From the NCBI GenBank assembly GCA_030747675.1, contig JASLKH010000003.1:1-12236 (forward strand): 12,236 nucleotides of DNA. Reading direction: 5' to 3'. Both the position numbers and the translations under genes were made by a program. The notes under the pieces were generated by a model. That model saw only the letters and a list, made by a program, of their open reading frames with translations. It had not been told where the DNA came from and did no database searches. The stretch is from Candidatus Thalassarchaeaceae archaeon. Lineage in GTDB: Archaea > Thermoplasmatota > Poseidoniia > Poseidoniales > Thalassarchaeaceae. Of the stretch, positions 3-11,313 are shown one piece after another (position 1 is the first letter of the stretch; every line of letters begins with the position of its first letter).

Positions 3-1619
3 TCACGCGCCAATGACGCCGAAGCAAAGCATGCTGAAGCAGTTGAAAAGCGCCAGGCTGCATCTGATGCTTTACTCAAGAGTACCCCCGAGCATCTTTC
101 AGACAGACTTCGATCATGTGAAGAATTACGAAATAATGCAATGATGGCCAAAATTGAAGCTGAAGCGAAATTGGCAAGTGGAAATGCGCAGACTGAATTG
201 CTTGAAAGAAGTGTCAGCGACATAGAGAGAAGACAGAAAGAGCAGAAACAAGTTGTTGAAAAATCAGAATTGAAAATAAAGGGACTAACATCCGAAATAG
301 AAACCCTTTCTGGAGAATTATCTACTGTTAGTGAGGCACATGAGCAGGTAGCAGAAGAACATCGTGAATTGAATGAACAAAGCAAGTCGATGCGCGAAGA
401 TAGAGCTGGGTTAAAGGCCCAACTTGATCAGAATAGTGCGCAACGTGAAACTTTGAGAGGCCGAGTCGACGAACTATCAAAAGAAATCGAAACCAAGCGT
501 AGACTTTTGGAGGAATTGACGCAAGAAATGGCGACACAAGAAATTGAACCCATTGCAGAAGATATTGATTTACCAAGTGTCGGTGACGCCGAAGGATTTG
601 TTAGAAATATCGAGAAGCGAATTGGGAATCTTGGTGATGTGAACATGCTATCCATTGAGCAATATGACGAGGCTGAGGATCGTTTAAGCCGTATTTCCGA
701 TGATTCAAAGGTCTTACGTCAACGTAGAAAAGACCTCATTGGACTTGCTGAGAAACTTGAAGGTGAGAGGAAATTAAGATTAACAACAGTCCTTGAAATC
801 GTATCGGAAAATTTCAAGCGTGTTTACAAAAGATTATCCGATGGCGGCAAGGGAGAACTCCGACTTGAGAAGCCAAAAGACCCCTTTTCTGGTGGATTGG
901 AGATGTGGTGCCAACCTCGTGGAAAATCGAATAAGAGCAAATTGAGTTTACTTTCGGGTGGCGAAAAATCAATGGCTGCATTAGCCTTAATATTTGCAAT
1001 CCAAGATTATGACCCAAGCCCATTCTATTATTTTGATGAGGTTGACCAGAATTTAGATTCATACAACGCAGAGCACATTGCAAGGTTGTGCCGCTTGAGA
1101 AGTAAACGCGCACAATTTATCATGGTGACTTTGCGAAAGGTCAGTCTACAACTTGCCGATCACCACATTGGAATAACGCACGCAGGTGATGGTTGCAGTC
1201 GCCGTATTACTGACTTTGATCGTGAGCAAGCAATAGGCATGGGAGAAAAGGAAGAAGAACGCAGAGAAATCGCCTTGAAACAAAAGACAGAAGTTGTCAA
1301 GAACCTACCTGATCCATCGAATATGGAGAATGTTCCAGATGAATTGCCAACACCTGCTAGTCTCGGAGGTAGCCTACTAGATAATTCCGAATCTCAGACT
1401 AGTGAATCTGATATTAAGGCTGAATCTAGCCCCGAAATCAATGAAGTTGAAGGACCAGACATTAGCATTACATCACTTGCTGAAAGGGCTGAAGACCTTA
1501 AGGAAGATATGACTGAGCGTAATGATTGGCAGAAAGCTGTTGACAATACTGATGAATCTGTAGAAAACACGGCCGATGATGAGGTAGAAATTGAAGCCGA
1601 AGTTGAGGAACAGGAGTGA
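3..1619 (+). CDS. smc: Chromosome segregation protein SMC, C-terminal part (5'-truncated by the window edge)
   Basis: The frame of ORF 141..1619 is open back to position 3 (SRANDAEAKHAEAVEKRQ...). A long coiled coil leads into 'LGDVNMLSIEQY', the ABC signature 'LLSGGEKSMAALALIFA', Walker B/D-loop 'PFYYFDEVDQNLD' and the archaeal-type 'QFIMVTLR' strand. It is followed directly by scpA. Confidence 0.97.
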   Translation, partial: SRANDAEAKHAEAVEKRQAASDALLKSTPEHLSDRLRSCEELRNNAMMAKIEAEAKLASGNAQTELLERSVSDIERRQKEQKQVVEKSELKIKGLTSEIETLSGELSTVSEAHEQVAEEHRELNEQSKSMREDRAGLKAQLDQNSAQRETLRGRVDELSKEIETKRRLLEELTQEMATQEIEPIAEDIDLPSVGDAEGFVRNIEKRIGNLGDVNMLSIEQYDEAEDRLSRISDDSKVLRQRRKDLIGLAEKLEGERKLRLTTVLEIVSENFKRVYKRLSDGGKGELRLEKPKDPFSGGLEMWCQPRGKSNKSKLSLLSGGEKSMAALALIFAIQDYDPSPFYYFDEVDQNLDSYNAEHIARLCRLRSKRAQFIMVTLRKVSLQLADHHIGITHAGDGCSRRITDFDREQAIGMGEKEEERREIALKQKTEVVKNLPDPSNMENVPDELPTPASLGGSLLDNSESQTSESDIKAESSPEINEVEGPDISITSLAERAEDLKEDMTERNDWQKAVDNTDESVENTADDEVEIEAEVEEQE

Positions 1620-1624
1620 TTGAT

Positions 1625-2635
1625 ATGAGTCTCCTTGAGACCCGAAAGATGCAATCTGAGATTGTTCGCCAACTCCTTGGTGAGCAGAAAGAAACGGAAT
1701 TGGACAAACATCGTTACATTGACAGGTTATTAGAAATCGCAGATCTTGAAAGTGCAGAGCATCAAAGTTTAGTTGAACCATTCGATCGTTCAGTTGCGTT
1801 AGTTTTTCAAATGTTCAATGACGATGCACTAGATCCATGGGACGTAGATTTGTCTGTATTTATTGAACAATTCAATAAGCGCATTAAAGATGCAGAAAAC
1901 ATCGATTTACCTACTTGTGGGCGATTGATTAGGATGGCTTGGAGAGTTCTATATGGTCAGGCAACAACTCTTCTGGAACGTGCAGAACGTGTAGATGATG
2001 AATGGGAAGATGACCCATGGGCATTGGATGGTTGGCAGACATCATTTGAGGACGAAGAATACAATTTCAGTGTTGGAATAATTTCCGGACAGACTACCGA
2101 TTCACTTCCAGGGTTACTTGATGGACGCATCAAACGCGAAGAAGGCCGTCCTGTGACATTGTCTGAATTGTTAATGTCTTTACAGGGGGCACATTTGGAT
2201 GCAGAGGATCGCCGAATACGCGAAGAGAATCGGGTAAAGCATGCTGCTGAAGTTGCTGATTGGATGTCTAATGTTACAAACCGAGTTCACAAAGAAGATT
2301 TGGAAGACGACATACGTCGTTGTTGGAATGCAATGCGTTCTGCCTCACCAGATGGTGCACCGGTTACTTTGGCGCAACTGTCAACTACACTCGCCGAGCA
2401 TTCTGCCGCTGAAGGTTGGACTTTGAAGGAAGCTGAGGAAGAAGGACAAGTAGCGGGTTTTGTTTCAGCTTTATTCCTCACCCATAGAGGGTACTCTGAC
2501 TTGTGGCAAATGGAATATCCAAATGGGGATATCTTCCTTCAAGATAAATGGCCAAAACTCCCTGACTTCGAAGCAGTTTCTGAGGAAATAGGGATTGGTC
2601 CAAGAATAGCAGAAAGGGGTGATGAGGATGAATGA
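1625..2635 (+). CDS. scpA: Segregation and condensation protein A (kleisin ScpA)
   Basis: Archaeal ScpA motifs 'LDPWDVDL', 'IDLPTCGRLI', 'RPVTLSELL' and the C-terminal 'FVSALFLTHRG...LWQMEYPNGDIFL'. Lies directly after smc. The ORF track starts at GTG 1616; ATG 1625 is preferred because the SD-like GGAGTGA (1613-1619) precedes it. Confidence 0.9.
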   Translation: MSLLETRKMQSEIVRQLLGEQKETELDKHRYIDRLLEIADLESAEHQSLVEPFDRSVALVFQMFNDDALDPWDVDLSVFIEQFNKRIKDAENIDLPTCGRLIRMAWRVLYGQATTLLERAERVDDEWEDDPWALDGWQTSFEDEEYNFSVGIISGQTTDSLPGLLDGRIKREEGRPVTLSELLMSLQGAHLDAEDRRIREENRVKHAAEVADWMSNVTNRVHKEDLEDDIRRCWNAMRSASPDGAPVTLAQLSTTLAEHSAAEGWTLKEAEEEGQVAGFVSALFLTHRGYSDLWQMEYPNGDIFLQDKWPKLPDFEAVSEEIGIGPRIAERGDEDE

Positions 2636-3272
2636 TCCTGAATTACAAACATTGTTGGAATCGACACTTTTTGCAGCAGGTCACTCCTTGTCAGTCGATG
2701 AATTATCAGAAGCCTTTGAAGTTACGCCGGGCACAATTATAGCATCTTTGGAGGCACTTCAAAGTACAATGAAAAGACGTAGAGGGGGTGCTTTACAACT
2801 TACTGATGTGAGTGGGCGTTGGGTGATGGAGGTGAAACCAAAATTAGCAACTCATATCCCTTCATCATTCAGAACTGAAATACCAAAACGATTACTTGCT
2901 CCAGTTGCATTAATTGCTTACCATCAACCAATGGCACAAAGTCAATTGGTGGATATGGTTGGCCAAAGAGCCTATGATCATGTGCGAGAATTAGCAAATC
3001 TGGGACTTGTAGATCGCCGCCGCGATGGTTTGACTCGAAGATTAACAACAACTCGGCGTTTCGCAGAATATTTTGGATGCCCGTTTGCAGAATCAAGGAA
3101 AGTTAGGAAGTGGTTTCGAGAGGAAGCAGCAAATGCAGGTTTAACTGGAGCCGAACTTGCAGCAGCCCTTGGTGGATCCGAGAGTGGAGATATCCAAGAA
3201 GCCCCAGAAGTCCCAGTTAGTGACGATTGGGATGAAAGCAGCGCTGAGATAATTGAAGATGATGAAGAGTAA
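2628..3272 (+). CDS. scpB: Segregation and condensation protein B (kite ScpB)
   Basis: ScpB motifs 'LESTLFAAGHSLSVDEL', 'ALIAYHQPMAQSQLVDMVG...YDHVREL...GLV' and 'TTTRRFAEYFG'. Overlaps the end of scpA. The ORF track starts at GTG 2619; ATG 2628 has the SD-like GGGGTGA (2616-2622) upstream. Confidence 0.93.
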   Translation: MNDPELQTLLESTLFAAGHSLSVDELSEAFEVTPGTIIASLEALQSTMKRRRGGALQLTDVSGRWVMEVKPKLATHIPSSFRTEIPKRLLAPVALIAYHQPMAQSQLVDMVGQRAYDHVRELANLGLVDRRRDGLTRRLTTTRRFAEYFGCPFAESRKVRKWFREEAANAGLTGAELAAALGGSESGDIQEAPEVPVSDDWDESSAEIIEDDEE

Positions 3273-3275
3273 TTA

Positions 3276-4568
3276 TTATTCTCGCAAAGATTTGAGTGCA
3301 TTTTCAATTGTAGCAGCAGTGATTCTTTCCCCACTTGCTCGAATCATGTCAACAACAAGATCGACCTCATGATCTTCAGCACCTGCAGTTACGGCCATGT
3401 TCCTTGCATGTAGTTTCATGTGCCCTGCTTGGATACCGACAGTTGCCAAAGCACGCAATGCCCCAAGGTTTTGTGCAAGTCCTGCTGCAGCCATCACTTT
3501 TGACAATTCATCAGCAGTACGGGCACCAACAATGGCAACATTTGCCTTTGCAACAGGGTGTACTCTTACAGCGCCGCCTACTAATCCTACGGGCATAGGT
3601 AATTCGATTGAACCGAATAGATTGCCTTCTGAGTCCTTTTCCCAGTGAGTCAAAGACCCATATGTCCTTTCATGTGATGCGAATGAATGTGCTCCGGATT
3701 CTATTGCTCGCCAATCCTGGCCACAAGCAACACCAATTGGCGATATCGCATTCATGATTCCCTTATTGTGCGTGGTCGCACGAAATGGATCGGCAGCGGC
3801 AAAATGATATGCTTGAAGAATACCGTCGATGACATCAGAACCTTGCTCAGAATCTCCAGAATCTGACATTTCAAGAGGGGTGAATGTCGCACTGACTTTA
3901 GCAAGTCTGTGTATTGCCAAATTACTGATAATTCTCAGAATCACAGTACCCCCAGTTATGACTTCAATCCGGGGTGCGATTGTTTCAGCCATCGTATTGA
4001 CAGCATTTGCACCCATGGCATCTCTGCAGTCTACTAAGATGTGCGCAATAACCATCGGTCCAGATTGTGTATCGATAACTCGAGCATTAAGGTCGCGACA
4101 ACCCCCTCCGAATTTGACCAATATTGGATCTACTTCGTTACACGAATCTATAAGTTCTTTTTTAGAATCCAGTATAGCCTCTTTTGCAGCAAATGCATCT
4201 TCGCATCCCACAACTTGTATTTGCCCAATCATAATGGGATCTGTATTGTTTGAAGTAAAGCCACCTTTAGCATGACACCTTTTGGCCATATTGCTTGCTG
4301 CAGCAACAACCGAAGGCTCTTCAAGTGCAAAGGGAATTATGTAGTGTTCTCCATCGATAATAAAATTCGTGGCAATACCTACTGGAAGCGCCATTGTCCC
4401 AATTACATTTTCAATAATTCGGTCAGCAGCCTCTTCAGAAAGTTCTCCTGTAGCGGCTAAAGAATCAATTGCATCTTGATCCAATCCTGCTAGTTCAGCT
4501 ACCTTTTCTCGACGTTCTTTCACACTCAACTTGTAAAATCCTCTTAGACGGCTATTTTCGATTGGCAT
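3276..4568 (-). CDS. mvaA: Hydroxymethylglutaryl-CoA reductase, class II (bacterial-type, MvaA-like)
   Basis: Class II motifs: N-terminal 'SRLRGFYKLSVKERR', 'IENVIG', 'EEPSVVAAAS', 'DAMGANAVN', 'THNKGIMN', 'GQDWRAIE' and 'GIQAGHMKLHARN' (catalytic His). SD-like GAGGGTAGG upstream of the ATG. Confidence 0.96.
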   Translation of the reverse strand: MPIENSRLRGFYKLSVKERREKVAELAGLDQDAIDSLAATGELSEEAADRIIENVIGTMALPVGIATNFIIDGEHYIIPFALEEPSVVAAASNMAKRCHAKGGFTSNNTDPIMIGQIQVVGCEDAFAAKEAILDSKKELIDSCNEVDPILVKFGGGCRDLNARVIDTQSGPMVIAHILVDCRDAMGANAVNTMAETIAPRIEVITGGTVILRIISNLAIHRLAKVSATFTPLEMSDSGDSEQGSDVIDGILQAYHFAAADPFRATTHNKGIMNAISPIGVACGQDWRAIESGAHSFASHERTYGSLTHWEKDSEGNLFGSIELPMPVGLVGGAVRVHPVAKANVAIVGARTADELSKVMAAAGLAQNLGALRALATVGIQAGHMKLHARNMAVTAGAEDHEVDLVVDMIRASGERITAATIENALKSLRE

Positions 4569-4598
4569 GTCCTACCCTCAATTGATTCCCTTAGACGG

Positions 4599-4610
4599 CC
4601 CCCCTAAATG
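4599..4610 (-). promoter_or_regulatory. Putative TATA-like element plus G-run upstream of the HMG-CoA reductase gene
   Basis: The minus strand reads CATTTAGGGGGG, with the G-run starting 36 nt before the ATG at 4568. A similar motif at similar spacing precedes rps6e. Confidence 0.4.
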
Positions 4611-4669
4611 GTTACGAGTGTATATTTCGCAAGGTGAGTTCGGGATACTTTGCATTTTCCTTTATGCTG

Positions 4670-4733
4670 GAAACCCGTTAGCAAAGCGTTACTAACGCTT
4701 CCGACGCGTTAACAAAGCGTTAGAAACACGTTA
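4670..4733 (+). repeat. Array of five 11-bp direct repeats ending in CGTTA, with one inverted copy
   Basis: GAAACCCGTTA 4670-4680, GCAAAGCGTTA 4681-4691, CCGACGCGTTA 4701-4711, ACAAAGCGTTA 4712-4722, GAAACACGTTA 4723-4733. The inverted copy TAACGCTT at 4693-4700 forms the perfect palindrome AAGCGTTA-C-TAACGCTT (4684-4700). Confidence 0.9.
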
Positions 4734-4770
4734 ATAATATATTTATTAAAAATTAAAAATAACAAAAATA
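4731..4770. other. Extremely A+T-rich tract (candidate DNA-unwinding element)
   Basis: TTAATAATATATTTATTAAAAATTAAAAATAACAAAAATA: 39 of 40 bases are A/T, far above the surrounding coding DNA. It abuts the repeat array. The sequence is directly seen; the function is inferred. Confidence 0.6.
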
Positions 4771-4844
4771 AGCGAAAATCGAATTCGGCACCATCTTCAA
4801 CGCTTACAAAACAATTTCTGTGAGTGTTAGATACGCGTAAATGT

Positions 4845-4851
4845 GTTAAAC
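4845..4851 (+). promoter_or_regulatory. Putative TATA box for a leaderless transcript of the ATPase-wHTH unit
   Basis: GTTAAAC lies about 25-30 nt upstream of ATG 4875, and there is no SD sequence before that ATG. Confidence 0.3.
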
Positions 4852-4874
4852 CCAATTGCTATTCGCTGCCGTAT

Positions 4875-6584
4875 ATGTCAGTAAGCGCTCTTGAACATCT
4901 CCATTTGCCCCCTATGCGTGGGAATCCGTTCTCGACACGGCCAATAGAGGCCAATGATGCCGATTTACTCGTTGGAAGAAAGCAGTTAATGTCGGATTTA
5001 GGCCATCATCTTCGTTTCGGAGGGCCGCGTTTGATGATTTTACTCGGTGAAAGAGGTACAGGGCGGACATCAGTATTGCATGCACTGGGTAATTTCGCAT
5101 CAAATACACATCACATCTCTCTTTATCCAGAAGAGAATCCAGCCCAAACGTTGTTGAATGAGCTATATTGCTTGATTGCAGGTTATGATGTACCTGGTTC
5201 TTCAAGTAAATTGATCGAACAATTAGTCTCATCCTTGGAAGGTAAATCGATAGATTTACCACTGATATCATTTGATTTCCCAGGAATAAATGGTCTAGAC
5301 CTCGCTCTTGTTTTTGAGAGAATCACACCCATATTGGCTAGAATGCGAGCTTTGATTGTCATAGCATTGACTCCTGCACAATTGAGTGCATGGTCTGAAG
5401 ATCTTCGGGAACCATACCATATTTCGCCTCCTTTAGTTGATTTTGATGCCATATCCGTGCGCTCCCTTATTGACTCTAGGATGCAGAAGGTTAGCAAGGA
5501 AAAGTGGGTTGCTAGTGATGATATCATTGCTTCCGCTATTGCAGCCACTGGTGGAAGGCCAGCGATACTTATTCGTTATTTGAGAGACATAATCGATTCC
5601 AAGAGAGGAGTATCCTCACCTCTTTCTAGGAAATTAGAAGTTATTGGTTCGATGGATATTGAGAATGCAAAAACGAACCCTAATGATGCGAGGAATAGAA
5701 TGGCTCCCGAAATTTCAGAAAATACACCTTTAGACATCGAAGATGAACCAAAAATGGAAGGAAAGGACGAAGAAACGCTTCTTGATGGCTCGGAAAGCCT
5801 CGATATCGAAGAGTTAAATGCAGATGATGAATTATTCCAAGAAAGTGATTTAGATTTTCAAATACCTGAGATTGAAGATGACATCGACGTTGAAGATGAA
5901 TCTAATCCTCTTCCCTCATTAGAATTAGAGGATATAGTTGAGCCAGACATGTCTGCTGCTTTTGGTGGCGCAGTTCTTGAGATGGATCCAGGTACCGAAC
6001 CACCTGCAGAACGAAGTGCATTTGGGGGACTAAAAAATCGGCATCGAAATGCTAGAATTGAGCAAGGATTGGATCGTTCCCTTGAGCGCTCACCTTCTAA
6101 TGGACCAATGAATGCAAAACCAGATACTTCAATCCCTGCCTCTTCAACAAATCCAAATATTGAATCTGAAGAAACAGCATATTGGGTTTCAGACTCAACC
6201 TCCATTAGTGAAATCGAGCCTGAAGATTCCCATTCGCAGCCAGTAATGGACCCCATGGCTGCTAAGACCTTCGGTGATGCTCTCCGTGCTCAACGACCAA
6301 TTCCTAGGCGATCAGAAATCCCTAATGCATTGGACATTGGGCGAATCACAAATTTAGATGAGCGTGAAATATTAATTGTCGAAGCCGCAACTGCGAGAGA
6401 GGTATCCCCTTCAGATCAGGCCTTACAAGCTCATCTTTCAGTGGGTAGGCCCCGTCTTTCGCAAATTTTTAACGGATTACAAAAAGCAGGAATATTGGCT
6501 GTGCGAAAGAAGGGGCGTACACGCTTATTCCGTCTTTCTGAATCTGCTAAAGCCCACCTATCTGGTGGCCATATGGAGGCCTGA
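4875..6584 (+). CDS. Uncharacterised P-loop ATPase (STAND/AAA+-like) with long acidic linker and C-terminal winged helix-turn-helix
   Basis: N-terminal 'GNPFSTRP...LLVGRKQL', Walker A-like 'LLGERGTGRTS' (5046-5072), Walker B-like 'LISFDF' (5262-5279) and GxP-type 'TGGRP' (5547-5561). Then a D/E-rich low-complexity middle, and a C-terminal 'LDEREILIV...LQAHLSVGRPRLSQIFNGLQKAGILAVRKKGRTRLFRL' typical of wHTH. ATG 4875 is preferred over GTG 4824, which lies in the noncoding-looking region. Confidence 0.8.
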   Translation: MSVSALEHLHLPPMRGNPFSTRPIEANDADLLVGRKQLMSDLGHHLRFGGPRLMILLGERGTGRTSVLHALGNFASNTHHISLYPEENPAQTLLNELYCLIAGYDVPGSSSKLIEQLVSSLEGKSIDLPLISFDFPGINGLDLALVFERITPILARMRALIVIALTPAQLSAWSEDLREPYHISPPLVDFDAISVRSLIDSRMQKVSKEKWVASDDIIASAIAATGGRPAILIRYLRDIIDSKRGVSSPLSRKLEVIGSMDIENAKTNPNDARNRMAPEISENTPLDIEDEPKMEGKDEETLLDGSESLDIEELNADDELFQESDLDFQIPEIEDDIDVEDESNPLPSLELEDIVEPDMSAAFGGAVLEMDPGTEPPAERSAFGGLKNRHRNARIEQGLDRSLERSPSNGPMNAKPDTSIPASSTNPNIESEETAYWVSDSTSISEIEPEDSHSQPVMDPMAAKTFGDALRAQRPIPRRSEIPNALDIGRITNLDEREILIVEAATAREVSPSDQALQAHLSVGRPRLSQIFNGLQKAGILAVRKKGRTRLFRLSESAKAHLSGGHMEA

Positions 6585-6586
6585 AA

Positions 6587-7621
6587 ATGTCTGAAGACTG
6601 GGAGATTTCTTGGAGCCATCAAGTTGAGGGGAGAGTCGGTGCAATTTGTTGCGTAGGTGAAGACAGTCTAATTGCAGCAGGAAATATTGTTCGCCGCCTA
6701 AATTCAGATGGTGATTTCATTTGGAGGAGAGAATTTTCATTTGATGTCTACCGTTTAGCACATGACGGTACGAACATGGCAGTTCTAGCAGGTTCAGCCT
6801 TCTTTATTCTCGACCTATCCACTGGAGAACCAATCGGTGAAGGCCGTTCTGTTGCGGGAGGTTTCAGAGATGTGATAGTTAGACCTGGAGGGGGATGGGT
6901 ATTGGCGGATCGTGGAGATCACATTCACCTTTTCAATCGTAGAGGAAGGGGGATACGTAGATTACGCCCAGGTTCTTTGATGAAGATGATTGGTTGGCTT
7001 GATCGTGAACTTTTATTGGCACAGGACGCAGATGGCTGTATGCGTGCCCTTCGTTTGGGAGGAGATGATGCACAAAGGAAGATTGAATCGATACGATGGT
7101 CTTGGATATCTGAATTGCAAGAAGGCCGATTAGTGGTGCAAAAAATAGACGGTAGTTTGTATGAAGGTGTCCCCAACCCATTTGGGTGGGATCAATTAGA
7201 GCGAATTCCTGGAGACGGTTTAATCCCTATATCTGCAGCTTGGACAGGAGAAGGATGGTGGACATTAGATGTATCTTGTGATTTAATTAGATTACCAATG
7301 AGTGACGATTCAATTCGTCATCCTGCTGGTGATTTACTAGTTTCAAATAAAGTTGATCGGATGCTTACCTCTACAAGAGATGGACTAGTTCGAATGTGGG
7401 TTGCCCCTCACCTTGCAAGTAGGAGGCGTTTGCTATTCGAAGAAATTGCCACGGGCGAAATTCGTCGATTGGATTGGGAGCAACGACAGGTCATTTTTGA
7501 AGCCGCCAGAGATGCTGAAGAGAATGGGATGCTTAGCCGTGCCATTGAGTTGTATGACTCTCTAGGGCGCGCTGATGATGTTCATCGCTTAATTTCTCTA
7601 AGGGAGGGATATGATGAATAA
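6587..7621 (+). CDS. Hypothetical protein, probable beta-propeller (PQQ/WD40-like) with short C-terminal helical segment
   Basis: Repeated short beta-strand units with Gly/Trp/Asp turns ('RRLNSDGDFIWRREF', 'FILDLSTGEPIG', 'IHLFNRRGRGIRRL', 'TSTRDGLVRMW'). Helical end 'FEAARDAEENGMLSRAIELYDSLGRADDVHRL'. GGAGG SD at 6575-6579; starts 2 nt after the upstream stop. Confidence 0.6.
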   Translation: MSEDWEISWSHQVEGRVGAICCVGEDSLIAAGNIVRRLNSDGDFIWRREFSFDVYRLAHDGTNMAVLAGSAFFILDLSTGEPIGEGRSVAGGFRDVIVRPGGGWVLADRGDHIHLFNRRGRGIRRLRPGSLMKMIGWLDRELLLAQDADGCMRALRLGGDDAQRKIESIRWSWISELQEGRLVVQKIDGSLYEGVPNPFGWDQLERIPGDGLIPISAAWTGEGWWTLDVSCDLIRLPMSDDSIRHPAGDLLVSNKVDRMLTSTRDGLVRMWVAPHLASRRRLLFEEIATGEIRRLDWEQRQVIFEAARDAEENGMLSRAIELYDSLGRADDVHRLISLREGYDE

Positions 7622-7913
7622 TCAGAATACTGAAGTCACAGAATCTCTAATTTCTCGATATTTGAAATTGACTCATATGGCAAGAGAAAAGGCCACACCA
7701 GTACACGATAAAGGTACAAATGAATCGAAAAACCTCGAAATTATGATGGAAATGGCAGACTCTTATGCATCAGATGCAAAATGGTTTGTTGGTCAAGGCG
7801 ATTTTGTCCGTGCATTTGGAGCAATTAATTATGCACATGCCTGGATTGATTGCGCTGTAAAAATCGGTTTACTGGATGGGCATGGCGATGATGACATGTT
7901 CACCTTACCTTAA
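7611..7913 (+). CDS. DUF357 family protein
   Basis: The pattern 'MEMADSYASDAKWFVGQGDFVRAFGAINYAHAWIDCAVKIGLLD' matches the archaeal DUF357 helical family as I recall it. SD-like GGGAGG lies just upstream; the gene overlaps the previous stop. Confidence 0.85.
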   Translation: MMNNQNTEVTESLISRYLKLTHMAREKATPVHDKGTNESKNLEIMMEMADSYASDAKWFVGQGDFVRAFGAINYAHAWIDCAVKIGLLDGHGDDDMFTLP

Positions 7914-10137: not shown

Positions 10138-11313
10138 TCATTGATTCAAAGCCTGCTCAAGACGTTTTTCAAGAGTTCCGGGCAAACTATCTGGCATTGA
10201 AATGTACTGGGTCCGCCCCCGTCCAGCCTTTGCAGTTGCCATTCGAGTTACCATCAATCCCCTGGACTCTAGTGACTTGATATTTTTCCAAAATGTTGTG
10301 TGGCTGCGTGGTTTGGCACTAAATTCTTCACAAACCACTTTATACAATTTTTCGGCATCTCCTGTGGTAATTTCAGGATCCCGCCGCAATCTTCGACAAA
10401 TGGCAAGAAGAGTCAATTTTTCGTGTTCTAGAAGTTCATTGACAAGACTCGGTTCAACAGTCTGTAGTTTGGAGTCTTTCCTTTCTTGGTCCACATGCTG
10501 AATTTCTACTTCTCTAGATCCATCCATTTCAGCTGACTTCACAGACGCTTCGAGTAGTTCAATTGCAACTCTAGCATCTCCAGATTCAGCGGCTACTTGC
10601 CCAATTAAAGTTAGTATTGATTCTGACACAGCCCCATGCCTAGTTGCCAATTCTGCACGTTGAGATGCAATTGCAGTCAATTGTTCCGATGTGTAAGGTT
10701 TGAGTGCGAGATGATTTGATTTCCCGAAACGTGAAATTATCGCCCCTTCTAATTGATCTAAAACTTGTTCTTGACTAACCAATATGAGTGACAATGTACC
10801 ACTTTCATCTCGCCCTTCATCTATTCTGAGGAGTTGATAAAGAAGATCGCCTCCCTCTCTACGTAGTAAATGGTCAATTTCATCTAAAATTAGTAGCATA
10901 TGTTGGTTCCTTGTTCTCAAATTTCTTCGAATTCCCTGAATTACCTCACTTGATGAGAATCCGCGGTCTGGCCATCTTTCGTCGAGTGTTTTCGCAATAC
11001 GTTGAAGCACCTGTGCGATAGAAGGGTGGTTTCTACAATTGACATGTACAGTTGTGATCGTTCTAATTGCAGATAGATGACGTGAGATATCATCGCCGAA
11101 AGCACGACTAAGCACAGTCTTTCCACATCCAACATTGCCTGTAATGACAGCTCTGCAAGATATACCTGGGGTTCCGATTGCTGCGAACATTGCTGCCAGG
11201 GCCTCTTGCTCCTTTCCTCGTCCGACAATTTCAGGTGGCACCCAATCATAGGAAAGAGGTGTTGCATCGAGCAAGATTAGCCCGGCGCCAATTCGTTTCA
11301 AGTAATCAGCCAT
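10138..11313 (-). CDS. cdc6: Orc1/Cdc6 family replication initiation protein
   Basis: 'LSYDWVPPEIVGR', Walker A 'GNVGCGKT', 'HVNCR', Walker B 'LILDEID', Arg finger 'SRF', 'KPYTSEQL', sensor-2 'GDARVAI', and a C-terminal winged helix 'TTGDAEKLYKVVCE...RSHTTFWKNIKSLESRGLM...GRGRT'. Confidence 0.97.
   Translation of the reverse strand: MADYLKRIGAGLILLDATPLSYDWVPPEIVGRGKEQEALAAMFAAIGTPGISCRAVITGNVGCGKTVLSRAFGDDISRHLSAIRTITTVHVNCRNHPSIAQVLQRIAKTLDERWPDRGFSSSEVIQGIRRNLRTRNQHMLLILDEIDHLLRREGGDLLYQLLRIDEGRDESGTLSLILVSQEQVLDQLEGAIISRFGKSNHLALKPYTSEQLTAIASQRAELATRHGAVSESILTLIGQVAAESGDARVAIELLEASVKSAEMDGSREVEIQHVDQERKDSKLQTVEPSLVNELLEHEKLTLLAICRRLRRDPEITTGDAEKLYKVVCEEFSAKPRSHTTFWKNIKSLESRGLMVTRMATAKAGRGRTQYISMPDSLPGTLEKRLEQALNQ

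Follow-up and report, generated by a model that had tools for sequence, protein, structure and literature searches.

A conserved array of helically phased boxes upstream of an order-specific AAA+-winged-helix gene in Poseidoniales: a candidate operator platform

Among the planktonic archaea of surface oceans, the uncultured Poseidoniales (Marine Group II) are the most abundant. To our knowledge, nothing is known about gene regulation or the start of replication in this order. We analyzed a stretch of 12,236 nt (the window) of a Thalassarchaeaceae genome, in which one intergenic region combines a dense array of short repeats with an extremely A+T-rich tract. An initial annotation had proposed that this region may be a lineage-specific replication origin or another chromosome-organizing site with a new repeat code. 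Does the array serve replication, chromosome organization, or the control of the adjacent genes?

Six CGTTA cores lie within 58 bp (4676-4733), mostly at a spacing of 11 bp. The direct cores on the plus strand start at 4676, 4687, 4707, 4718, and 4729, i.e. in steps of 11, 20, 11, and 11 bp, and an inverted core, TAACG, is found at 4693. The resulting distal array (4673-4737, plus strand), with five direct boxes and one inverted box, takes in a perfect palindrome, AAGCGTTA-C-TAACGCTT (4684-4700). The box unit is asymmetric, about 8 bp long, and reads (A/G)GCGT(T/G)A(A). A spacer tract with 39 A+T in 40 positions (4731-4770) separates the distal from the proximal boxes, which include an inverted box, AACGCTT, at 4799-4805. 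All these elements, i.e. the core positions with their steps, the inverted copies, the palindrome, and the tract, had been reported in the initial annotation and were found in the sequence as described. The TTTCC-N8-GGAAA dyad at 4656-4673 is also present; a role as a functional part did not hold up, as it lies inside a variable stretch (4626-4672) that is the least conserved of the region (mean column identity 0.55), and judged from the sequence it is probably due to chance.

The array is exceptional in its genome. CGTTA occurs 1146 times on both strands of the 1.68-Mb assembly, compared with 1557 occurrences expected under a Markov-1 model, and for a stretch of 58 bp with at least six cores, the Poisson expectation over the entire genome is about 9e-6. 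The second-densest cluster of the assembly has three cores per 150 bp, so that a genome-wide count yields the array as the only cluster of its kind, and a weight-matrix scan revealed only scattered single boxes outside of it. A regulon-wide motif was considered and rejected, as no second intergenic cluster was found in the genome (weight matrix and cluster scan) or in the complete genome of a relative from another family, G026 (cluster scan). The array of G026 is likewise unique, and the sole other dense CGTTA cluster in that genome sits within an ORF of 2738 aa.

The region had been placed between smc-scpAB and cdc6. Its direct neighbors are different ones, namely hmgA on the left (3276-4568, minus strand), which encodes HMG-CoA reductase (Pfam PF00368, E 7e-104), and a gene for a 570-aa protein on the right (4875-6584, plus strand), which consists of an AAA+ domain, an acidic linker of 220 aa, and an ArsR-type winged helix-turn-helix (wHTH) domain. 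The ORF of this AAA+-wHTH protein had been listed with a GTG start at 4824, and the conserved start codon is the ATG at 4875, which is present in 18 of 18 sequences of the genus. The second gene of the operon (6587-7621, plus strand) encodes a seven-bladed WD40/BamB-like beta-propeller with a helical C-terminal tail (AlphaFold2 pLDDT 88; Foldseek matches to WDR5 and BamB); it directly follows the AAA+-wHTH gene in all relatives read, with identities of 76-85% within the genus. The third gene (7611-7913, plus strand), which overlaps the propeller gene by 11 nt, encodes a DUF357 protein (Pfam PF04010, E 3e-20). The divergent hmgA is a neighbor of the AAA+-wHTH gene in every genus read, and smc-scpA-scpB follow directly beyond hmgA, both here and in G026. 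The cdc6 gene (10138-11313, minus strand; Pfam Cdc6_lid and Cdc6_C) is an Orc1-2-class paralogue, lies 5.3 kb from the array, and is not part of the element.

Conservation of the array was followed through the order. The array and the adjoining AAA+-wHTH gene co-occur in every Poseidoniales genome read (14 genera of three families), and in every genus examined the boxes are retained at fixed distances from the start of that gene. About 20 species of the genus share exactly the same spacing of the distal array (mean column identity 0.89), an equivalent phased array is present in all other genera, and the CGTTA core is invariant across the order. Neighboring direct boxes are separated by 11 bp in 19 of 45 cases across genera and by 22 bp in five of 45. 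When box positions are counted from the conserved NPF codon of the AAA+-wHTH gene, the distal boxes of family f1 are found at the near-invariant positions -247, -236, -230 (minus strand), -216, -205, and -194, and further boxes at -118, -96, and -86. The boxes of family f3 extend from -205 to -157, with an additional pair at -119/-110, and the entire intergenic region comprises only about 200 bp, which has to accommodate two promoters. Column identities are 0.89-0.93 for the boxes versus 0.55-0.63 for the spacers, a contrast that is expected of binding sites. The initial proposal of a lineage-specific, putatively protein-binding repeat code is thus in agreement with the order-wide conservation of the repeats and their 11-bp phasing; the A+T tract, which had been thought to be part of the same element, is not conserved (see below). 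Conservation of the array is not explained by RNA structure, as RNAalifold predicted only -2.8 kcal/mol and no compensatory pairs for a structured RNA or 5′-UTR element in 4775-4880 (18 sequences of the genus) and an Rfam search of the window gave no match.

The proximal boxes are in register with a putative promoter. The inverted box is carried by a proximal block, TTCGG...CTTCAACGCTT(C/A)CAAAAC (4784-4811), with a mean column identity of 0.87. The value is 0.93 for the promoter-proximal block (4825-4851, plus strand), in which TGTTAGA is followed by a box and then by a TATA-like sequence. This box reads GCGTTAAC in relatives and is degenerate in the present genome (CGCGTAAA, 4834-4841). The TATA-like sequence, GTGTTAAAC (4843-4851), has its TTAAA centered 27 nt upstream of the conserved ATG and would represent the TATA element of the AAA+-wHTH gene; the transcription start assigned from it is equally putative. 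Proximal boxes generally abut a TATA-like element about 27-33 nt upstream of the start codon, and in other genera GCGTGA boxes adjoin ATATTA or CATATAC at the promoter-proximal position. On the opposite side, a block at 4603-4618 reads CTCGTAACCATTTAGG on the minus strand, includes a TATA-like TTTAGG about 39 nt before the ATG of hmgA, and has a conserved counterpart, TCCTAAAgGgTTgCGA, in 20 genomes of the genus; it presumably is the hmgA promoter.

The A+T tract behaves differently from the boxes. In this assembly, it is one of only two 40-mers with at least 39 A+T. In relatives, the length of the spacer is conserved, and its sequence and A+T richness are not. Within the genus, the best 40-nt windows have 27-36 A+T; the values are 25-32 for other genera and 24 for G026. 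The latter value is unexceptional, because 2872 tracts of that genome reach at least 26, and the region upstream of its Orc1-1 gene reaches 31. Therefore, the extreme A+T content is specific to this genome. Here, the spacer between oppositely oriented boxes does look origin-like, and this counts against an operator function.

The AAA+-wHTH family is restricted to Poseidoniales, as a phylum-wide genome search showed. The only Pfam match of the protein is AAA_16, with 23 bits and thus below the cut-off of 32.6 bits. None of the Cdc6 family models (Cdc6_lid, Cdc6_C) matched, whereas the true Cdc6 of the window matches all of them, and a comparison with the Orc/Cdc6 sequences in the PDB yielded no match even at E 10. 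The best structural matches of the ATPase domain are nonetheless replication initiators (Orc1/Cdc6), tied with MuB, TnsC, and RFC, which is a further point against an operator function; compared with solved STAND NODs, initiator-clade AAA+ proteins are the closer match in fold. The Walker A motif is G-x-G-R-T/S in 11 of 12 orthologues, i.e. Arg replaces Lys, and in Walker B the D is invariant and not followed by E (12 orthologues). Based on these two substitutions, the AAA+ module is probably hydrolysis-dead. The nearest relatives outside the family are AAA_16/ATPase_2/KAP-type proteins of 370-440 aa, several of them with a C-terminal wHTH, which match AAA_16, ATPase_2, and NACHT. The C-terminal 100 aa have profile matches to ArsR-family structures (BigR, 1.9e-5), and the recognition helix (R-x-R-L-S-Q-I) and the wing (G-R-x-R) do not vary among ten orthologues, which represent three families. 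For a large protein that is universally conserved in its order, it is unusual to have only one target locus, and this observation does not favor an operator function either.

As judged from the sequence, the box array most likely consists of operators that regulate only the flanking genes. An operator function is favored because the distance between the boxes and the start of the AAA+-wHTH gene is fixed and boxes adjoin its TATA-like element. The register of the boxes to this promoter is retained together with the gene, and the neighboring gene encodes a DNA-binding domain; both features are characteristic of an autoregulatory winged-helix operator array. With moderate confidence, we propose that the array is a distal-plus-proximal operator platform on which the neighboring AAA+-wHTH protein oligomerizes, thereby controlling its own operon and perhaps hmgA.

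The proposed mechanism is as follows. The array would be a two-part docking platform within a bidirectional promoter region that serves hmgA on one side and the three-gene operon of the AAA+-wHTH, WD40-like propeller, and DUF357 proteins on the other. In the distal cluster, the spacing of the five direct boxes and the inverted box by one helical turn would turn all sites to the same side of the double helix. The proximal boxes, i.e. the inverted one at 4799-4805 and the direct one that abuts the TATA-like element, would follow after a spacer of free sequence and conserved length. The most likely binder would be the C-terminal ArsR-type winged helix of the adjacent protein, with each flexibly tethered wHTH reading one box. 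The N-terminal, initiator-clade-like AAA+ module could drive cooperative oligomerization along the phased array and bridge the distal to the proximal boxes by bending or looping of the spacer. In this way, the protein would control the operon that encodes it, which is probably leaderless, and possibly the divergent hmgA promoter as well. As in a STAND system that is split into two polypeptides, the propeller protein may act as sensor or partner. The identity of the binder, its oligomerization, the looping, and the direction of regulation are all parts that we infer.

Several known systems resemble such a platform. MalT boxes at the mal promoters of E. coli are also short and asymmetric, occur in direct and inverted orientation, spread over 100-200 bp upstream of the promoter, and are occupied cooperatively. 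MalT and other STAND proteins likewise join an NTPase oligomerization module to a C-terminal HTH and have a repeat-type sensor, which would here be a separate WD40/TPR-like protein, if it is a sensor at all. The STAND layout of NOD, repeat sensor, and effector may have counterparts here in a weak AAA_16 match and a WD40-like propeller that is encoded immediately downstream. In contrast to MalT/STAND, the fold of the ATPase comes closest to initiator-clade AAA+ modules and not to a classical NOD, its Walker A motif has Arg instead of Lys, the effector is an ArsR-type wHTH and not a LuxR-type HTH, and only one target locus exists in the genome. Because the host of the array is an archaeon, the promoter is of the TATA/BRE type, unlike that of MalT. 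In Sulfolobus, the Orc1/Cdc6 paralogue Orc1-2 regulates transcription (PMC9738581) and provides a precedent for an initiator-type AAA+ protein with a winged helix that acts at promoters and not at origins. However, Orc1-2 truly belongs to the Orc1/Cdc6 proteins and has a genome-wide regulon and another short motif (PMC9738581), whereas the AAA+-wHTH protein is outside the Orc1/Cdc6 family, has the long acidic linker, and has a single target locus.

A replication origin, as initially proposed, is not the best reading of the region, considering the unconserved A+T tract, the operator-like register, the Orc1-2 class of the nearby cdc6, and the ambiguous skew. We regard it as unlikely that the region is a non-canonical second origin, in which the phased boxes would be initiator sites and the A+T tract the unwinding element, with either the AAA+-wHTH protein as an order-specific initiator or the nearby Orc1-2 acting on it. 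The layout of this genome is compatible with that possibility. As in archaeal oriC regions (Sulfolobus, Pyrococcus, and the 13-bp repeats of Methanothermobacter), repeats in both orientations flank an extreme A+T tract, here one of the two richest of the assembly, and the array is unique and directly upstream of a gene for a protein with AAA+ and winged-helix domains. In addition, an Orc1-2 gene is located 2-6 kb from the array in five of five genomes checked (four genera), the array region is the only long intergenic region near it, and smc-scpAB adjoin in this genome and in G026. There are also differences from archaeal oriC. The array has no ORB or mini-ORB consensus and no G-string; a search for TCCANNTGGA with up to one mismatch gave six matches in the window versus seven expected by chance, none of them in 4569-4874, so that the reported absence of canonical ORBs was confirmed. 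The A+T richness is not retained in other genera, and the short intergenic region of family f3 also has to hold two promoters. The neighboring protein does not belong to the Orc1/Cdc6 family and lacks both the Walker A Lys and the Walker B Glu.

The initiator genes also point elsewhere. The closest solved relative of the Cdc6 encoded in the window is 1fnn (8e-40), and the value for A. pernix ORC1 is only 6.5e-28. This cdc6 has no long upstream intergenic region, and a repeat search there gave only chance 8-mers. The Orc1-1-class gene, next to which an ORB-type origin would be expected, is not adjacent to the array. It is found on contig C47, behind an AT-rich region of 389 bp with inverted repeats of 15-17 nt, which is a better origin candidate and looks classical; in relatives, the region upstream of the Orc1-1 gene contains TCCAATTGG dyads. 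A literature search retrieved no paper on Poseidoniales origins.

Skew was analyzed in the complete 2.06-Mb genome of G026 and in flanks of about 80-100 kb on each side of the array in two further genomes, G029 and G032. In G026, the detrended cumulative GC skew has its minimum at 654 kb; the array of this genome is located at 695 kb. In G032, the right flank of the array has a higher GC skew than the left flank. In contrast, the switch points of AT skew and gene orientation in G026 are elsewhere, at about 0.1-0.2 Mb and 1.0-1.3 Mb, and neither G029 nor G032 has a sign flip at the array. The skew signals of G026 are thus conflicting, and the GC skew of this genome is ambiguous. The distance of 41 kb between the GC-skew minimum and the array is an observation that counts against an operator function.

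The array and the AAA+-wHTH protein could also form a replicator-initiator pair, i.e. a second, non-ORB chromosomal origin of Poseidoniales that is served by a degenerate Orc-like protein, which we consider rather doubtful. The ancestor of the order would have acquired such a pair next to smc-scpAB and Orc1-2, and its promoter-overlapping boxes would autoregulate, as at classical cdc6-linked origins. Plasmid iterons with winged-helix Rep proteins invite a similar comparison, because they are helically phased tandem direct repeats near an A+T-rich stretch, lie upstream of the gene for the winged-helix protein, and include inverted copies through which Rep autoregulates. However, iterons are about 17-22 bp long with a period of about 22 bp versus 8-bp boxes with an 11-bp period, and the array is chromosomal, syntenic across the order, and not accompanied by mobile-element genes.

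Another factor could, as far as the sequence tells, read the boxes, which counts against our preferred reading of an operator platform for the neighboring protein. The array might then be an operator of an unlinked transcription factor, e.g. a dedicated regulator of hmgA and isoprenoid lipid synthesis, with the AAA+-wHTH gene merely as a co-regulated neighbor; this seems rather improbable. The hmgA gene encodes the committed step of the mevalonate pathway, a plausible control point. Its presence as divergent neighbor in every genome read would fit such a factor, and so would family f3, in which the array begins at a constant distance of about 57 nt from the hmgA start codon, just upstream of the presumed TATA element. 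In family f1, however, the distance between the hmgA start and the array varies by 100 nt (67 to 167 nt), whereas that to the AAA+-wHTH start is fixed, and the proximal boxes are located at the TATA-like element of the latter gene. Moreover, the product of the adjoining gene has a DNA-binding domain whose recognition helix is invariant, and because the motif cluster is found nowhere else in the genome, the array would be the only target of such a hypothetical factor.

In archaea, the centromere sites of SegB and AspA are single-copy repeats or palindromes upstream of the operon for a small wHTH-type binder. A centromere-like or chromosome-organizing site that loads or anchors SMC-ScpAB, or at which the AAA+-wHTH protein nucleates a segregation complex, would be in line with the single-copy phased array upstream of the putative binder's gene, the position of smc-scpA-scpB just past hmgA here and in the complete relative, and the fold class of the ArsR-type wHTH, which resembles AspA-type centromere binders. 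Yet this is highly improbable, because the locus has no ParA/SegA-type ATPase and the register between array and promoter is more simply explained by transcription control. The putative binder also differs from SegB and AspA in carrying an AAA+ domain.

The locus offers a concrete candidate DNA-protein pair for Poseidoniales, i.e. a code of 8-bp boxes and an order-specific, universally conserved AAA+-wHTH protein, which adjoins hmgA, whose product catalyzes the committed step in the synthesis of membrane-lipid precursors. If the operator reading is true, the pair would constitute the first candidate for a circuit that regulates hmgA in this order, and an initiator-like AAA+ scaffold would have been reused for promoter control. 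If instead the array is an origin, it would represent a new type of archaeal replicator. Under either reading, assemblies of Poseidoniales can readily be searched for this conserved locus by means of its box motif, a single-copy landmark.

Between hmgA and the divergently oriented gene of the AAA+-wHTH protein, five CGTTA cores start at 4676, 4687, 4707, 4718, and 4729 (forward strand), and an inverted core, TAACG, starts at 4693. A perfect palindrome, AAGCGTTA-C-TAACGCTT, spans 4684-4700, and the array is accompanied by a 39/40 A+T tract (4731-4770), an inverted partial copy, AACGCTT (4799-4805), and a TTTCC-N8-GGAAA dyad (4656-4673). All of these elements are present exactly as described in the initial annotation. 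The window is one entire contig of an assembly of 1.68 Mb in 100 contigs that is 78% complete. In this assembly, CGTTA is rarer than expected, with 1146 copies on both strands versus 1557 under a Markov-1 model, and the chance expectation of six cores within 58 bp is about 9e-6 per genome. The genome-wide motif count that had been suggested found a single such cluster, the next-densest site having only three cores per 150 bp, and a 13-nt weight matrix derived from the repeats yielded only scattered single matches elsewhere. Only two 40-mers of the assembly reach at least 39 A+T, one of which is the tract of the array. The rarity of the core, the cluster statistics, the genome-wide scans, and the rare A+T tract thus show that the array is real and far beyond chance. 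The second extreme tract (at least 39/40), which is flanked by two short ORFs on the reverse strand, extends over about 100 bp of a 4-kb contig (C63:3643-3751).

The genes upstream encode the SMC C-terminus (3-1619; Pfam), a probable ScpA (1616-2635, forward strand), which is assigned by its position between smc and scpB and gave no match in Pfam or NCBIfam at the applied thresholds, and ScpB (2619-3272; Pfam). The array had been placed between smc-scpAB and cdc6; the Pfam-based gene order shows that it does not lie directly between scpB and cdc6, but in the divergent 306-bp intergenic region between hmgA (HMG-CoA reductase; 3276-4568, reverse strand; Pfam) and an ORF of 586 codons, called mechanically from a GTG at 4824 (4824-6584, forward strand). 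The real start of this ORF is the ATG at 4875, which is conserved in 18 of 18 sequences of the genus; the upstream part of the ORF, the first 17 codons of which overlap a conserved promoter block, contains stop codons in relatives. One database gene call for the protein encoded here begins even later (531 aa). The second gene of the operon (6587-7621, forward strand; 344 aa) is followed by a DUF357 gene, and the reverse strand carries genes for eIF2-gamma, S6e, a Cdc6/Orc1 that is genuine by Pfam (10138-11313), and Dph2.

Across about 20 species of the genus, the spacing of the array is identical, with zero indels, although the AAA+-wHTH proteins are only 51-67% identical. The genus consensus is GCGTTAACAAaGCGTTACTAACGCtTTa.AcGCGTTAACAAtgCGTTAAcaAtGCGTTAAT. 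Mean column identities are 0.89 for the distal array, 0.87 for the proximal block with AACGCTT, and 0.93 for the block TGTTAGA-(G)CGCGTTAAC-TTGTTAAACCC directly ahead of the start codon. The values are 0.55 to the left of the array, including the TTTCC/GGAAA dyad, and 0.63 for the A+T spacer, the length of which is kept while its sequence is free. A conserved RNA structure was sought as the cause of the conserved blocks; none was found, and Rfam gave no match.

The divergent pairing of hmgA with the AAA+-wHTH gene recurs in 13 further genera from three families, where the intervening region contains 5-9 boxes built on a CGT(T/G)A core, some of them forming palindromes (for example, TAACGCGTTA). 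Relative to the NPF codon, which is conserved in the AAA+-wHTH protein, box positions are nearly constant across genera. In family f1 they are -247, -236, -230 (inverted), -216, -205, and -194, with proximal boxes at -118, -96, and -86; in family f3 they extend from -205 to -157, with further boxes at -119/-110. Intervals between direct boxes are 11 bp in 19 of 45 cases and 22 bp in five. The repeats and their 11-bp phasing, the conservation of which the initial annotation had proposed to check, are therefore shared by the genus and the 13 further genera. In f3, the array lies about 57 nt from the hmgA start; within f1, this distance varies by 100 nt. Next to the proximal boxes is an A/T-rich hexamer, namely TTGTTAAA in this genome, ATATTA in several genera of f1, and CATATAC in f3. 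It precedes the start codon by 27-33 nt, where the TATA box of a leaderless mRNA would be expected in archaea, and is probably such a box. In G026, a complete genome from another family, 15 middle bases of the homologous array (C1:694898-694992) are withheld or masked and read N; its sibling G031 has TCATTAACGCGTTAC there. The only other dense CGTTA cluster of G026 (five in 128 bp, C1:1809754-1809881) lies within an ORF of 2738 aa and is probably a coding coincidence.

The predicted structure of the AAA+-wHTH protein shows an AAA+ core plus lid at residues 18-285 of the listed ORF (pLDDT 85). Matches to MuB and TnsC (13.5-14.6) and RFC (13.2-13.8) follow close behind the best one, so that the modeled fold ties among DNA-associated AAA+ clades. 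By sequence, the protein is not an Orc1/Cdc6: in tests for membership of that family, the sole Pfam match was AAA_16, under the cut-off, and a PDB sequence search gave no match. The Walker A motif reads G-x-G-R-T/S in 11 of 12 orthologues, and Walker B retains the Asp and lacks the Glu, which makes ATP hydrolysis doubtful. The AAA+ part is followed by about 220 aa of D/E/P/S-rich linker and then by a final 100 aa that form an ArsR-type winged helix (profile match to BigR, 1.9e-5); an alignment of ten orthologues, drawn from three families, shows an invariant recognition helix (R-x-R-L-S-Q-I) and wing (G-R-x-R). The protein family is present in 41 of 41 close relatives and, among sampled genomes, in 40 of 41 Poseidoniales versus 0 of 160 other Thermoplasmatota; all database copies carry the annotation hypothetical. 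The nearest outside relatives, identified by searching 1.8 billion proteins with a profile, are 370-440-aa AAA_16/ATPase_2/KAP-type proteins, several with a C-terminal wHTH. The gene directly downstream is always that of a WD40/BamB-like propeller, which has seven blades and a four-helix tail and matches no Pfam family. The propeller is 76-85% identical within the genus and 36-45% across families; the AAA+-wHTH protein, at 51-67% and about 30%, is far less conserved.

In this one genome, the element is similar in anatomy to archaeal origins and to plasmid iteron regions, and a lineage-specific replication origin or chromosome-organising site with a new repeat code had been proposed. A non-canonical origin is nevertheless unlikely. 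A motif search of the window detected neither an ORB-type dyad nor a G-string, in agreement with the earlier statement that the canonical ORB is absent, and the element falls outside ORB-type origins in membership tests. Every genome has two Cdc6/Orc1 paralogues. The one in the window is of the Orc1-2 class (best solved relative Pyrobaculum Cdc6, 8e-40; A. pernix ORC1 only 6.5e-28); its gene lies in a co-oriented run, dph2-cdc6-S6e-eIF2gamma, with gaps of only about 95 bp, and is thus tied to translation genes rather than to an origin-type intergenic region. The Orc1-1-class paralogue (A. pernix ORC1, 6.5e-87; S. solfataricus Orc1-1, 7e-76) is encoded elsewhere (C47:31100-32401, reverse strand). 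Upstream of it, an A+T-rich region of 389 bp (C47:32402-32790; locus L135:4403-4791) contains three to four inverted repeats of 15-17 nt of the GGTTTAAAAAATATC type, a G7 run, and a TGTCCAC inverted pair; the corresponding region of relatives has conserved TTTTGAGATA...TCTCACA...TCCAATTGG elements. This more conventional region is a better candidate than the array for a classical oriC. The extreme A+T richness proved unique to this genome: the best 40-nt window of the intergenic region has 27-36 A+T in the genus, 25-32 in other genera, and 24 in G026, where 2872 tracts reach at least 26 and the region upstream of the Orc1-1 gene reaches 31. In f3, moreover, the entire intergenic region of about 200 bp must hold two promoters.

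The best point in favor of an origin in this neighborhood comes from the complete G026 sequence (2,064,136 bp, assembled from fetched pieces): the array is at 695 kb, and the detrended cumulative GC skew reaches its global minimum 41 kb away, at 654 kb; beyond about 690 kb, the skew stays positive. However, the curves for AT skew and gene orientation have their switch points at about 0.1-0.2 Mb and 1.0-1.3 Mb, and the Orc1-1 gene (1.83 Mb) lies at no extreme, so that skew is not a reliable guide in this lineage. In flanks of about 80-100 kb per side from two more genomes, which are syntenic and thus non-independent, the right side of the array has the higher skew, and no change of sign occurs. 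The skew analysis proposed initially therefore gave a divided answer. GC skew is unusually strong and positive in the stretch C1:100000-200000 of G026 (+0.043 when corrected for gene strand), and a sharp reversal at 204 kb coincides with a gene-orientation switch; an island, a join in the assembly, or a replication landmark could explain this. In summary, the defining features of an origin are absent or unconserved; of the original proposal, the conserved, lineage-specific repeats remain.

We lean towards the array being a nucleoprotein platform that controls a bidirectional promoter and is bound by the neighboring AAA+-wHTH protein. This is suggested by the short asymmetric box used in both orientations, the phasing of the distal cluster by one turn, the spacer fixed in length and free in sequence, the proximal boxes on a TATA-like element, the strict register to the start of one gene, and the strict co-occurrence of this single-copy array with a neighbor encoding an invariant tethered wHTH and an AAA+ module presumed to oligomerise. 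That the boxes are instead read by an unlinked factor is improbable, and a centromere-like or SMC-related site is more improbable still. The architecture of the DNA, its conservation and uniqueness, and the domains and taxonomic range of the protein are established by the sequence data; for the control platform, we infer binder, assembly, looping, and direction of control as follows. One wHTH would read one box via its long flexible tether, and the AAA+ domains, probably hydrolysis-dead, would line up side by side along a single face of the distal array. Bending of the spacer would bring this complex to the proximal boxes, and transcription of the operon that encodes the AAA+-wHTH protein would thereby be set; hmgA may also be controlled, especially in f3, in which 57 nt separate the array from the hmgA start. 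The propeller/TPR-like protein may serve as sensor or partner, which would make a split STAND-like system.

The closest functional analogues are the MalT/STAND activators, the asymmetric boxes of which likewise form arrays, and Orc1-2 of Sulfolobus, a protein of the initiator type that acts as a transcription factor (PMC9738581). We rate the element as an operator array with its cognate regulator, a known type, in which the box and the order-restricted protein family are new.
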